64,000 nt of DNA from Leucoraja erinacea (Eukaryota): NCBI RefSeq assembly GCF_028641065.1, contig NC_073411.1:10974001-11038000 (forward strand), in the 5' to 3' direction. This document shows, in pieces, positions 21,387 through 35,436 of the stretch. Made by a program: the position numbers and the translations under genes. Numbering within the stretch: position 1 is the first letter of the stretch; every line of letters begins with the position of its first letter. The notes under the pieces were generated by a model that did not search any database, was not told the DNA's origin, and saw only the letters and a list, made by a program, of their open reading frames with translations.

Positions 21387-21890
21387 CTACCTCGCAATCC
21401 TCTCCAATTTCTCCAGCACACTCTGAATCTTGTGGACGGCCGCTTTCCGCACCTGCCGAATGTGCTCCTGGCCGTTCGTCTCCACCGAGTCCACTTCCAG
21501 GAGCTGTTTTGTCAGCAGCTCCTCCAGTAAGCGGTAAGTCTTGTCTCCCCGCTTTCCGTCAAACTGGTTCACCTCGGCCTCCAACTGCTGCACATTGTTC
21601 ATGACTTGCTCCACCTTGACTTGGCCGGGGTGCACGGGACATTCAGCCGGCTGCGTCCCCTCGTCAGTCGCAGCCCCCGCGGCCTTCTCTCGACCTCCCT
21701 TGCTCTCAGTGTGGACCTTGTACACAGTCGGGGGAGCGCTGTACTCCATCCGTGTGGCTTGCGTCGTGCCTGGCAGCTGGTCTGGGGGTTGCGGTGGGAG
21801 GTAGCCTGCGGGTTGCTGGTCATTCCCTGGGAAGTTTGCGTTGTTTAAGCAAGGCAGGGGGTCCTGATGGTTTATGGAATATGGAATATC
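21387..21890 (-). CDS. BAG4: BAG-family co-chaperone (BAG4-like), exon 5 with C-terminal BAG domain
   Basis: TAG acceptor; DIPYSINHQ...NANFPG...MEYSAPPTVY...VQQLEAEVNQFDGKRGDKTYRLLEELLTKQLLEVDSVETNGQEHIRQVRKAAVHKIQSVLEKLERIAR*; protein ends right after the BAG domain, as BAG4 does. Confidence 0.92.
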   Translation of the reverse strand, partial: DIPYSINHQDPLPCLNNANFPGNDQQPAGYLPPQPPDQLPGTTQATRMEYSAPPTVYKVHTESKGGREKAAGAATDEGTQPAECPVHPGQVKVEQVMNNVQQLEAEVNQFDGKRGDKTYRLLEELLTKQLLEVDSVETNGQEHIRQVRKAAVHKIQSVLEKLERIAR

Positions 21891-23399
21891 CTAAAGAAAA
21901 CAACAAGAAACAGTTTAGTTACCGAGGTACACGTTTTTATTGCAAGCTACCAGTCAGCAGAAACCTTCTCTCCAGAGATGCTGCCTGTCCTGCTGAGTTA
22001 CTCCAGTTTTTTGTGACTATCAGCGGAAAGATTATACAAGATTACAATCTAGCTGTCCACAGTGTACAGATATAGGATAATGGGAATAACATTTAATGCA
22101 AGGTTAGTAAATGCTGCTGTTGGAGTAGAGGTTTAAAAGAGTGGAGTGATTGTAAGAAATGATTCTGGGACCATTTTAACATAATCAGTCATTCCCCAAA
22201 CCCGAATAAATCCTAAAATTGTGAAAGGGAAATGTGATTGCAACGAATAAATCAGACAAGGCTAGAACCAGTGAACATTGCATGTATCAATTCAGAAGGC
22301 TTTTAATAAAATTCTATACAGGTCATTAAGCAAACTTAAAGCCCAAATTTGGAGATAGTATACTGATGAATTAAGCTTGGTTAATGGGTAGAAACAGGTT
22401 AAACAGGTCATTCGAGTTGGGAATTTCTGGCCAGGTTGGTCCCAAGCTGTTTCCACGATCTACATCGAGGATTTGGATGAGAGGACCAAGAGGGGTGCAG
22501 AGCAAGTGCGGATTTGTGAGGAGGATACAGAGAGGGGAGAGAGAACGACAGAAGATATGTGAAATGGATAATGACAACGTAAGGTTAAGAGGGATATGGG
22601 CCAAAAGGGGACTACCTTAGATGGCACAAAGTGCTGGAGTAACTCAACGTAACTCCTATACTGTAAGAAACTCATTTACAACTCGGGAGATGTCTTAGAA
22701 AATTGTATTGAGAAAGTTCAGAGCCATATAGCACTGAATGAAACTAGGCCCTTAGGCTGAGCTTGCCCATGCCAATTAAGATGTCCATCTACACTAGTCC
22801 CACATTCCTTCATTAGCCCCGTATCTCTCTGAACAGTTTCTATCACCTGTCCAAATGCCTGTTAAATGTTGTTATAGTAACTGCCTCACCTTCCTTTTCT
22901 GACAGGGAAAGAGTAATTTGCAAAGAATGCCAAATTTGTTATCATATTATCCAATTTTGAGCATCAGTTCTATGGTGAATTATTTACCTTTACCAATTCT
23001 ATGGGAGAAAGGTAAGCCCCAAGTGGTCAACCTGTACACAATTCACTTAGTTTAGTTTAGAGATACGGCATGGAAACTGGCCCTTCAGCCCACCGAGTCC
23101 ATGCTGGCCAGCGATCCCCACACATTAATATTATTCTGCACACACTAGGGACAATTTACGCTTATACCAAGCCAATTAACCTACAAACTTGTACGTCTAT
23201 TGGAGTGTGGGAGGAAACCAGAGATCCCGGAGAAAACCTACGCGCATGCCACAGGGACGATGTATAAACTGAGTACAGACAAGTACCCGTAGTCTGGACC
23301 AAACCCGGGTCTCCGGCGCTGTAAGGCAGCAACTCTACTGTTACACCACGATGCCGCATGTCGCAATAAAGGTGCTATTATGCACAAGGATTTACTTAC

Positions 23400-23717
23400 T
23401 TTCTGGTCATACACAGACGGTGGTGGGTCGACTCTCTGCCAGCCTGGCGAGGGTCCCGAAACAATGTTGCCCCCAAAGCCTGACATGGGATGAGTGAACT
23501 GCTCCGCGGATGACTGCATCGCTGGGACTCGGACCTGGGCCCAGGGGTCGTGAGTTGGCACTCCCGCTGTGGGAAGTGCAGATGCTGGCATCGAGGGTTG
23601 CCACTGTGCAGGCTGATGCTGAGGAGGATAGAGGGCCTGTTGCTGGGCAGTACCCGGGCTTCCAAAGGGGTACTGAGATGGCGTCACTGGGTAGTGAGGC
23701 TGTTGATCGTACAGCTC
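23400..23717 (-). CDS. BAG4: BAG4-like exon 4 (Pro/Gln/Tyr-rich)
   Basis: TAG/GTAAGT boundaries, 318 nt phase 0/0; ELYDQQPHYPVTPSQYPFG...HDPWA...PPPSVYDQK. Confidence 0.85.
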
Positions 23718-24519
23718 CTATTTAGAGAGAAGCAGAATACAGGTTAATTGAGGAAAGAAAGATTAACATCACAAATAACATAGTGGGACCAGGTGCTGGA
23801 ATCTTGAGTAGTGCTGGAGTAACTCAACAGGTCAGGCAGCATCTGTGGAGGGACAGGTGACTTTTCCCAAAATGTCACCTATTCATATCCTTCAGAGATA
23901 CTATCTGACTCGCTAAGTTACTCCAGCACTCTGTCCTCCAAGCATAAATAACACCCTGAAATTGCTTGTTAGCATTAGTATAGCAACCCATGCTAACCGG
24001 ACCTGTTATTGGTGATATAGGATGGGACTGCTCAATTTATTCTGTCAGTGTGAACCATGCTGGTGAAATTCGACTGGAAAGTTTGAAATGTTTCCCGGGT
24101 CAAAGAGTACCCCATTACTTGCTACCTAGAAGCCATCACGACAACCTGCCCTCACGAGAGTCAAGAGCTTAGTTACTGATTTCACGCTTCTTGTGCAGCA
24201 GGGCGGCCCAGCGGTAGAGTTGCTGCATTGCAGCATCAGAGAACCGGGTTCAATCCCGACTACGGGTGCTGTATGTATGGAGTTCGTACGATCTCCCCGT
24301 GACCGCATGGGCTGTCTCTGATATCTTCGGTTTCCTCCCATGCTCCAAAGACGTACTGGTTTGTAGGTTAATTGGCTGGGTATAAATGTAAATTGTCCCA
24401 AGTGTGTGTGTAGGAGAGTGTTAATGTGCGGGCATCGCTGGTCGGCGCGGACTTGGTGGGCCCTGTTTCCGTGTGGTATCTCGGAACTAAACTAAACATG
24501 CTCCAGTGTCAGCACCTAC

Positions 24520-24843
24520 CCGTTGTCCTTGGGCCGGTGAATAAGCCTGATGAGTGGGGGCCTGCGGCCTCGACAGCAGCCCCTGGTTGGGCGGGCCCGT
24601 TTGCGAGTAGGCCCACTGTGCGGAGGAAGCATTCCCGTTGGACGGAGGCCTTGGCAGCCCTGCCTGTGGCGTGGGGTTTTGCTGGTGCTGAGGATGCTGG
24701 CGGTAGGGCTGCTGTTGGTGGCTCTCGCTCGTTATGGGCTCCTCCCGCGGGTGCTCAGCCGGCCCCGGGGGATACCAAGCGTTCCCCTGGACAGGCCGCG
24801 GTGACGGCGCTCGTCCAGACGAGAACACACCATTGACCAACCC
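24520..24843 (-). CDS. BAG4: BAG4-like exon 3 (Pro/Gln-rich)
   Basis: CAG/GTAGGT boundaries, 324 nt phase 0/0; GLVNGVFSSG...AWYPPG...QWAYSQ...AQGQR. Confidence 0.85.
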
Positions 24844-33602: not shown

Positions 33603-34254
33603 GGCGTACTTCTCAACCCCAACCCCCACTAACTCCAGGGCCCTCATTTTTCCTTCCCCGATTGACTCAACCCCCACTAACTCCAGGGCCCTTTTTCCTT
33701 CCTTCTCCCCGCCACCCCCTATCAGTCTGAAGAAGGGTTTCGGCCCGAAACATTACCTATCTCCTTCGCTCCATAGATGCTGCTGCACCCGCTGAGTTTC
33801 TCCAGCATTTTTGTGTACCCCCACTAACTCCAATTCTTCCCCTACCACCATCCTCCTCCCTCTCATCCTTACTCTCACTCCCCCTCCCACTTCTCTCTCA
33901 AAATACTTTAAAGTACAGGTTTCGAGGGATATGGGCCAAACCAAGGCAGGTGCTACTAACTTTGATGGGGCATGTTGGTCGGCGTTGGGCCCGTTTCCAT
34001 GCTGTATGACTCTATGTGTAAGAAGGAACTGCACATGCTGGTTTAAACCGAAGATAGACACAAAAAGCTGGAGTAACTCAGCGGAACAGACAGCATCTCT
34101 GGAGTGGGAGTGAAGGAATGGGTGACGTTTCAGGTCGAGACCCTTCTTCAGCCTACGTCACCCATTCCTTCTCTCCAGAGATGCTGCCTGTCCCGCTGAA
34201 TTACTCCAGATTTTTTTGTGTCCATCTTCTCTATGACTCTTTGAAGGGTAGGAC

Positions 34255-35312
34255 ATACCCTTTCACTCCCTTTCCCTATTCCCTACTACCTCCTCTCTCC
34301 CTCTATCCTATCCACCTCCCTTCCTTTACTCTGTTCCCCTCTCTCCCTCACCTCCCTTATTCTCTCCCTCTGCTCCTCCCCCCATTCTTCCCTCCTCCTC
34401 TTACCACCCCTTCCCATTCCCTCTTCCCCCTCCCCTCCAGCCTCGTTTCCTTCCCCTCTATCCTCCCCAATCACCTTTCCTCTCCTCTCCCTTCTTCTCC
34501 TTCCTCCATTCATCTTCTCCTCTTTATTCCCCCTGCTCTTTACCTCATTCCTCTTCTCCCCCCCCCTCACCTCTTCCTCTCCCCTCCTATCCCTCTCTCT
34601 CCCCTTCCATCCTTCACCTCCCCTCCCCTTTGCCTCCCTCAGCTTCTCCCCTCACCCCCCCTCTCCTCCTCCCCTCCCCCCATCCCCCTCCTCCCCATCC
34701 CCCCCTCTCTCACCTCCCCCCTCTCCCCATCCCCCCCCTCTCTCACCCCTCCCCCCCTCCTCCCCCCATCCCCCCCCCCTCCCCCTCACCTCCCCTCCCC
34801 CCCACTCTCTCCCCCCCTCCCCCCCCCCCCTCTCCTCCTCCCCTCTCCCCATCCCCCTCCCCCCCCCCTCTCCCCCCTCACCCTCCTCTCCTCCCCCTCC
34901 CACCCTCCCCCCTCCTCTCCCCCCCACCCTCTCCTCCCTCCCCACTCCCCCCCCCCACCCCTCTCCCCCCCCCCCCCTCACCTCTCCCTCTCCTCTCCTC
35001 ACCTCCACCCTCTCCTCCCCCCCCCCCCTCCTCTCCTCCACCCTCTCCCCCCTCCCCCCTCCCCTCCCCTTTGCCCTCCCTCAGCTTCTCCCTTCACCTC
35101 CCCTCACCCCCCCATCCCCCCCACTCTCTCCCCCTCTCCTCTCCTCTCCTCTCCTCACCTCCCCTCTTCTCTCCTCCCCTCTCCCCCCCTCTCCCCCCCC
35201 CCCCTCACCCTCCCCCCCACTCTCTCCCCATCCCATCCCCCCTCACCTCCCCTCCCCCCCTCTCTCACCCTCCCCATCCCCATCCCCCCCCTCTCCCCTC
35301 TCTCGCCCTCCC
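34255..35312. repeat. ~1-kb C/T low-complexity tract (G/A-rich on the transcribed strand)
   Basis: Almost exclusively C and T runs, directly after the exon 1 donor. Confidence 0.95.
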
Positions 35313-35319
35313 CACTCAC

Positions 35320-35436
35320 CTTGCGGAGCCGGGGGTCATTCCATGTGGTGGTGCCGGTGTTATGGTCGATGTAGTAGGGCCAGCCGCTGTCGGGGTCGCG
35401 CTTCACCTCCCAGCCGCGGGGCAGAACGACGGCCAT
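35320..35436 (-). CDS. BAG4: BAG gene exon 1 encoding a BAG3-type WW domain
   Basis: Strong Kozak [46 protein letters not shown] has both Trp residues and the final Pro; AAG|GTGAGT donor, phase 0; lies in a CpG island. Confidence 0.9.

Follow-up and report, generated by a model that had tools for sequence, protein, structure and literature searches.

The skate BAG4 gene encodes an intact WW domain and probably marks an intermediate stage in the divergence of BAG3 and BAG4

Reviews of the BAG co-chaperones assign a WW domain to BAG3 and name no N-terminal domain for its paralog BAG4. Here we describe a gene on the minus strand of a 64,000-nucleotide stretch of the Leucoraja erinacea genome (assembly GCF_028641065.1, contig NC_073411.1, positions 10,974,001 to 11,038,000; hereafter the window) that we identify by sequence comparison as skate BAG4 and that encodes an intact WW domain, a linker predicted to be disordered and a terminal BAG domain. 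We consider it probable that the product is an Hsp70 nucleotide-exchange co-chaperone, predicted to be aimed at PPxY-type proteins and not to recruit small heat-shock proteins, and that the gene reflects the history of BAG3 and BAG4 proposed below. The gene had been noticed from the sequence alone as a BAG4-like gene with a BAG3-type WW domain (the original prediction).

The coding sequence lies in five phase-0 exons, each a multiple of three in length, with AG acceptors and GT donors (Table 1). Joined, they form one frame of 457 amino acids with a single terminal stop, and the translation is identical to the L. erinacea database record P0001, which is named "BAG family molecular chaperone regulator 3-like". 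Pfam WW matched exon 1 with 53 bits (cut-off 26.9) and Pfam BAG matched exon 5 with 66.6 bits (cut-off 23.4); the best solved-structure matches of the latter domain were SODD/BAG4 (85.7 bits) and BAG3 (80.7 bits). In a structure model, a three-stranded WW domain (predicted local distance difference test, pLDDT, ~ 80) and a three-helix BAG domain (pLDDT > 90) are connected by a linker of low confidence, which is predicted to be disordered. Foldseek searches with this model recovered the BAG domains of BAG3, BAG5 and BAG4 (E ≤ 1e-4) and gave weaker matches to WW domains that bind PPxY. A scan of the 457 residues found no [IVL]P[IV] motif, and the protein has no C-terminal tail beyond the BAG domain (0 residues). 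The predicted exon structure and domain order, and the lack of an IPV motif and a tail, are thus confirmed.

RNA reads also confirmed that the WW exon is joined to exon 2. About 5% of the raw run X24 was read, giving 26 reads on exon 2 that cover this exon and its two junctions. Read depth was confined to the exon bounds. Twelve reads crossed from exon 2 to the last part of the WW exon with an agreement of 0.99, and their WW-exon-side sequence is unique in the window (35322–35351); 17 continued into the start of exon 3, again with a sequence found once in the window (24813–24842). Contigs of X1 and X4 had the same exon 2 junctions. No upstream partner of exon 2 other than the WW exon was present among the read continuations listed. 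Run X23 had 0 reads on exon 2 and provided no test; junctions 3–4 and 4–5 are based on splice sites and the database model. The same X24 reads show an A/T difference at window position 29954 (8 of 19 reads), in the third position of an Ala codon, which is likely a silent allele.

Orthology was assessed with linkers, trees and a joint alignment. The linker profile comparison is the strongest of these tests. After removal of the WW and BAG domains, the skate linker scored 38.2 bits on a profile built from 10 bony-vertebrate BAG4 linkers, a value reached by 0 of 200 shuffles (mean −34.1, best −19.2). Against a profile of 14 BAG3 linkers it scored −19.2 bits, and 20 of 200 shuffles scored as high. 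For the BAG-domain tree we used 56 rows (55 of ~ 228 proteins plus the exon of the second skate gene described below), leaving out fragments, near-duplicates, BAG5-like sequences and WW-less invertebrate-type matches; the WW+BAG tree had 48 rows after removal of 8 more long-branch or redundant rows. In both trees, all cartilaginous-fish copies, the window gene among them, were sister to bony-vertebrate BAG4 (starred support 96/82 in the BAG-domain tree and 97/88 in the WW+BAG tree). The joint alignment revealed BAG4-specific motifs of exons 2, 3 and 5 common to the skate gene and bony-vertebrate BAG4. We therefore assign the window gene as the skate BAG4 ortholog, because its linker matches that of bony-vertebrate BAG4 and not that of BAG3 and because both trees agree, although the topology tests given below leave a BAG3 grouping unrejected, and the BAG4-like identity in the original prediction is upheld.

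A separate BAG3 locus with IPV motifs, as the original prediction had anticipated, was found on contig C15 (20.162–20.172 Mb). This gene encodes a WW domain, two IPV motifs plus a third, IPV-like one in the last exon, and a 68-residue tail; it fell inside the BAG3 clade in both trees (99/95 and 99/97) and is the canonical skate BAG3. BAG-domain searches of the skate genome gave four matches: the window gene, the C15 gene, and two inside one 470-residue frame on contig C9 that is likely BAG5. At E ≤ 1e-6, the WW exon matched only the window gene and C15 BAG3, whose WW domains are 68% identical. We found neither a grouping with BAG3 in a genome that has no other BAG3 nor an unspliced WW exon.

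Of 12 cartilaginous-fish BAG4 entries, seven carry the WW domain: those of skate, devil ray, chimaera, whale shark and three further sharks, which belong to different orders. Six cartilaginous fishes besides skate have WW-bearing orthologs that the database already names BAG4. The WW domain is also the most conserved part of the protein: between skate and chimaera, identity is 78% in the WW domain, 73% in exon 2, 68% in the BAG domain and 35–41% in the linker of exons 3–5. On the bony-vertebrate side, Pfam WW is recorded in 0 of 30 reptile and bird BAG4 entries, many of them partial, and Pfam WW matched none of eight further BAG4 proteins, from coelacanth, lungfish, sturgeon, bichir, a cyprinid, a caecilian, turtle and armadillo. 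This agrees with the predicted later loss of WW from BAG4 and places it on the bony-vertebrate line.

Exon 1 of bony-vertebrate BAG4 appears to retain traces of the lost domain. An alignment of 18 bony-vertebrate BAG4 N-termini, made without any WW input, shows in sequence a W-x-M column block, another W, two paired Tyr and, immediately upstream of exon 2, a W-x-x-P-x-R block; WW domains of the BAG3/BAG4 family have these elements in the same order. The profile of the 18 rows scored 19.6 against 31 non-BAG4 WW rows and 19.8 against the seven cartilaginous-fish WW rows (E ~ 6e-4). None of 150 column permutations scored as high, the best reaching 12.3 and 14.4, and the highest score among 15 linker windows was 10.4. 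W9, W19 and W32 were invariant in 14 of 14 rows of the joint alignment, seven of which are bony-vertebrate BAG4. The profile match and the invariant tryptophans suggest that the WW domain likely decayed in place, with three tryptophans kept, rather than being removed by deletion of the exon. The decayed domain at the same place also argues against a regain of the WW exon by cartilaginous-fish BAG4 from BAG3, through gene conversion or exon shuffling. WW domains in lamprey, amphioxus and hemichordate relatives speak against such a regain too, as do the differences between the skate-type and BAG3 WW domains at Tyr28/Phe, Ile30/Val and Gly35/Arg in every row. Nothing direct favors it, only the likeness of the two domains, and we regard it as scarcely credible.

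Relatives outside the jawed vertebrates bear on the ancestral layout. We picked 14 WW-bearing invertebrate-type proteins from profile-search matches, eight of which are named (amphioxus, two hemichordates, three molluscs, an annelid and a flatworm); many other invertebrate-type matches have no WW domain. Among the picked proteins, all 14 carry IPV-type motifs and 12 have a tail of at least 19 residues. Within vertebrates, the IPV motif is present in 17 of 17 BAG3 rows versus 2 of 23 BAG4 rows; one of these two, in Heptranchias BAG4, aligns with the last-exon motif of BAG3, and skate BAG4 keeps a degenerate form of it. When linkers were compared with an invertebrate linker profile, 0 of 200 shuffles scored as high as the chimaera BAG3 linker, whereas 73 of 200 did so for the skate BAG4 linker. 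The motifs, the tail and the BAG3 linker match together suggest that the deep ancestor was likely BAG3-like, with WW, IPV, BAG and tail, and that skate BAG4 is likely an intermediate stage in which IPV and tail had already been lost. The original prediction had taken the skate layout as a whole for the ancestral BAG3/4 architecture. This is supported for the WW domain but not for the IPV-less, tailless arrangement, because of the invertebrate-type motifs and tails, although lampreys share the skate layout.

From these comparisons we propose that an ancestral WW–IPV–BAG–tail gene would have been duplicated in an early vertebrate genome doubling. BAG3 would have retained every part, whereas BAG4 would have lost IPV and tail before the split of cartilaginous and bony fishes. 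In the bony line, the BAG4 WW domain would then have decayed in place, leaving the three exon 1 tryptophans.

With regard to function, skate BAG4 combines two predicted activities. The short BAG domains of BAG3–5 are described in PMC4753570 as nucleotide-exchange factors acting on subdomain IIB of Hsp70, and PMC10636303 gives D424, R438 and Q446 as Hsp70 contacts of human BAG4. Equivalents of all three are kept in skate BAG4 at equal distance from the C-terminus, so that binding to Hsp70 can safely be expected. BAG3 is reported to contact HSPB8 through its IPV motifs and SYNPO2, LATS1/2, AMOTL and TSC1 through its WW domain (in the account of PMC5478690). Because IPV is absent, we predict that skate BAG4 does not recruit HSPB8. 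The WW domain of skate BAG4 is closest to those of the NEDD4 family and KIBRA and contains the two signature Trp residues, the proline pocket, and the His and aliphatic residue of the Tyr pocket of type-1 WW domains. These features make it probable that the domain binds PPxY.

Several results weigh against parts of this reading. The vestige match in bony-vertebrate exon 1 is weak in absolute terms (HH probability 27–28%), and single-sequence searches for it reached at most 6.4 bits, so that the signal appears only in the profile test. In an earlier run with an untrimmed alignment, 4 of 200 and 1 of 200 permutations scored as high; the few very high permutation outliers of that run were taken for artefacts. 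Five of the 12 cartilaginous-fish entries have no WW domain: one is a partial record, one is isoform X2, one starts at a Met inside exon 2, one has an unrelated N-terminus and one is a second chimaera model. We take these five for incomplete or alternative gene models, and true loss may have occurred in some sharks. For orthology, approximately unbiased (AU) tests, made on short alignments, left a grouping of the cartilaginous-fish copies with BAG3 unrejected (p 0.115 and p 0.0645). The window gene might accordingly be a second BAG3 copy that lost IPV and tail, a view that also fits the "BAG3-like" name of P0001, the identity of its WW domain to that of C15 BAG3 and the SacI-domain gene that follows both genes. 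The linker, which matches BAG4 and not BAG3, largely refutes it, and it is also contradicted by the BAG4 names of the orthologs in other cartilaginous fishes, by the BAG4-clade position in both trees, by the BAG4-specific exon motifs and by the lack of another BAG4 candidate among the four BAG-domain matches in the genome. We judge it very improbable.

The lamprey gene is a further difficulty. Proteins from three genera (P0084, P0214 and P0215) have WW and BAG domains, no IPV and a 4-residue tail, and they lie outside BAG3+BAG4 in both free trees (95/87 and 95/81); the simple history given above then needs a second loss. Alternatively, in a narrower form of the original prediction, the IPV-less WW–linker–BAG layout could itself be of old vertebrate origin: either an early duplication led to BAG3 on one side and to BAG4 and the lamprey gene on the other, or the ancestor of vertebrates had this layout already. 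This would account for the layout shared by the three lamprey genera. The lamprey linker, moreover, outscored 199 of 200 shuffles on the BAG4 linker profile but was itself outscored by 178 of 200 on that of BAG3, and a lamprey plus BAG4 grouping was unrejected by AU tests (p 0.44 and p 0.35). With the lamprey BAG domain as query, the one match among 119 candidates was the query itself and no second lamprey paralog came up, although this is an insensitive and weak test. However, the lamprey score on the BAG4 profile is still negative (−3.4 bits), the tree position is outside both paralogs, and the invertebrate profile match of the chimaera BAG3 linker suggests that the IPV motifs of BAG3 were likely inherited and not regained; lamprey orthology is also recognised as difficult to resolve, as stated in PMC7269912. 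We think an old vertebrate type rather unlikely. As these lamprey genes annotated "BAG3" are IPV-less and almost tailless, the name may mislead.

A third difficulty concerns the ligand pocket. Type-1 WW domains usually have a long Lys, Arg or Gln side chain at position 35, from which the Gly of skate BAG4 departs. This Gly is found in 7 of 7 cartilaginous-fish BAG4 proteins, whereas Arg occupies the position in 15 of 15 BAG3 proteins; none of the two lamprey and 14 invertebrate-type WW domains has Gly there either, and the NEDD4L, ITCH, WWP1 and KIBRA domains compared have mostly Lys or Arg there. Position 35 lines the Tyr pocket, according to the description in PMC4301871, and its Gly may perhaps weaken PPxY binding relative to BAG3. 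The substitution could even mean that the domain was kept without BAG3-like PPxY binding, for other proline-rich ligands or for its own linker, as a step towards the loss in bony vertebrates. Against this, Tyr28, Ile30, His32, Thr37 and Trp39 are intact in 7 of 7 (YAP numbering), the closest solved relatives are PPxY-binding domains, the WW domain is the best conserved part of the protein, and a scan for PPxY or LPxY found neither within skate BAG4 itself. We therefore prefer PPxY binding and consider such a change of ligand rather doubtful.

Full-text searches that covered few subscription journals found no published report of a WW domain in BAG4 or of a WW vestige in mammalian BAG4; databases already carry WW and BAG annotation of cartilaginous-fish proteins under the name BAG4. 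The case is one of paralog divergence and involves no new mechanism. Cartilaginous fishes would capture an intermediate stage, with IPV and tail lost first and WW later. Skate BAG4 can be viewed as a naturally occurring variant of BAG3 in which the WW arm is present and the IPV arm missing, which could help to separate these two functions in a gene linked to cardiomyopathy. The presumed decayed domain draws attention to three conserved tryptophans, open to direct mutation, in a region of mammalian BAG4 that is poorly understood, its N-terminus; silencing of TNF receptors has been reported for this mammalian protein (as noted in PMC4463985). More speculatively, exon 1 of all bony-vertebrate BAG4 genes, including those of mammals, might be an unrecognised former WW domain whose three tryptophans were kept for more than 400 million years by re-use as a disordered binding motif, and at the same time the IPV-less WW–BAG protein of skates and lampreys might be a distinct, vertebrate-old co-chaperone type that connects Hsp70 with proline-rich signalling proteins but lacks the arm through which BAG3 reaches small heat-shock proteins. 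We offer this combined proposal only tentatively and think it more likely wrong than right.

Table 1. Exons and likely promoter of skate BAG4 (window coordinates; numbered 5′ to 3′ along the forward strand)
Feature	Position	Strand	Evidence
Exon 1 (39 aa coding; start codon and intact WW domain)	35436–35320	minus	Pfam WW; spliced to exon 2 in reads
Exon 2 (37 aa; BAG4-type Tyr/Trp motif block)	30010–29900	minus	Read depth; alignment with bony-vertebrate BAG4
Exon 3 (108 aa; Pro/Gln/Tyr-rich linker)	24843–24520	minus	Splice sites; exon 2 junction in 17 reads
Exon 4 (106 aa; Pro/Gln-rich linker)	23717–23400	minus	Splice sites; part of P0001
Exon 5 (167 aa and stop; BAG4 pre-domain motif, degenerate last-IPV-like motif, short BAG)	21890–21387	minus	Pfam BAG; solved-structure matches; model; alignment
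Likely promoter (62-bp tandem repeats, CCAAT and GC boxes)	35496–35923	minus	Repeat and pattern scan; function inferred

The 1 kb upstream of skate BAG4 contains seven CCAAT boxes and four GC boxes, and a pattern scan found 0 heat-shock-element patterns in it; the same kind of scan found two 2-unit heat-shock-element patterns upstream of C15 BAG3. BAG3 is a gene that heat shock induces by way of HSF1. A repeat promoter with CCAAT and GC boxes and no heat-shock-element pattern weakly hints at constitutive expression of skate BAG4. Further upstream lies a satellite-like array of 14/26-bp units (36010–37058). Intron 1 begins with a ~ 1-kb G-rich, purine-rich low-complexity tract on the coding strand (34250–35310), a possible G-quadruplex former, and also holds, on the minus strand at 32456–33463, a 336-residue transposase frame of the Tc1/Sleeping-Beauty type with helix-turn-helix and DDE domains. 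This is likely a decayed copy, since its nearest ATG is out of frame.

The neighbours on contig C35, which carries BAG4, are an ankyrin gene upstream and, beyond BAG4, a SacI-domain gene and a GRK4/5/6-type gene. A SacI-domain gene follows each BAG gene on the same strand (C35 BAG4 and C15 BAG3), with one exon 73% identical between the two, and each contig also has a DDHD-domain gene. The SacI-domain phosphatase gene directly downstream of BAG4 (window 1766–11650, minus strand; exons e.g. 4853–5032 and 6943–7057) is presumably a retained second INPP5F/SAC2 copy. The GRK4/5/6-type kinase gene beyond it (C35:10892000–10939500, minus strand) may be a GRK5-like paralog. The 3′ exons of the ankyrin gene lie at window ~ 51200–63240 (minus strand), with ankyrin-repeat and spectrin-binding-type exons further upstream; the frame at 62903–63238 resembles the small muscle isoform of ANK1. 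The neighbours form a paired set which, with ANK1, INPP5F, DDHD2 and SEC23IP as the presumed gene names, would match the human 8p11 and 10q26 regions. LSM1 was dropped as a synteny marker: the sole LSM-family match on C35 looked SmG-like and not LSM1-like.

Skate BAG4 can thus be compared with four known systems. With the BAG4/SODD of bony vertebrates it shares the short terminal BAG domain, the absence of tail and IPV, a Pro/Tyr-rich linker with common motifs and the Hsp70-contact residues; it differs in the intact WW domain of exon 1, which is predicted to fold, whereas the N-terminus of sturgeon BAG4 is predicted to be unstructured. Its vertebrate paralog BAG3 likewise has an N-terminal WW domain followed immediately by a phase-0 intron, a short BAG domain and a SacI-domain gene downstream. 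Unlike BAG3, skate BAG4 has no IPV motifs or tail, its linker is not detectably alike, a Gly replaces the Arg of the WW Tyr pocket, and there are five exons where BAG3 has four (in the C15 gene and in the gene as described in PMC5478690). The invertebrate BAG3/4 genes of amphioxus, hemichordates, molluscs, annelid and flatworm also combine a WW domain, a linker and one short BAG domain, but theirs have IPV-type motifs (all 14 picked) and mostly a tail. The lamprey "BAG3" or "BAG3-like" proteins resemble skate BAG4 in their WW domain, Pro/Tyr/Gln linker, BAG domain, lack of IPV and near-absent tail; they are shorter (340 residues), have Gln at WW position 35 and branch outside both paralogs.

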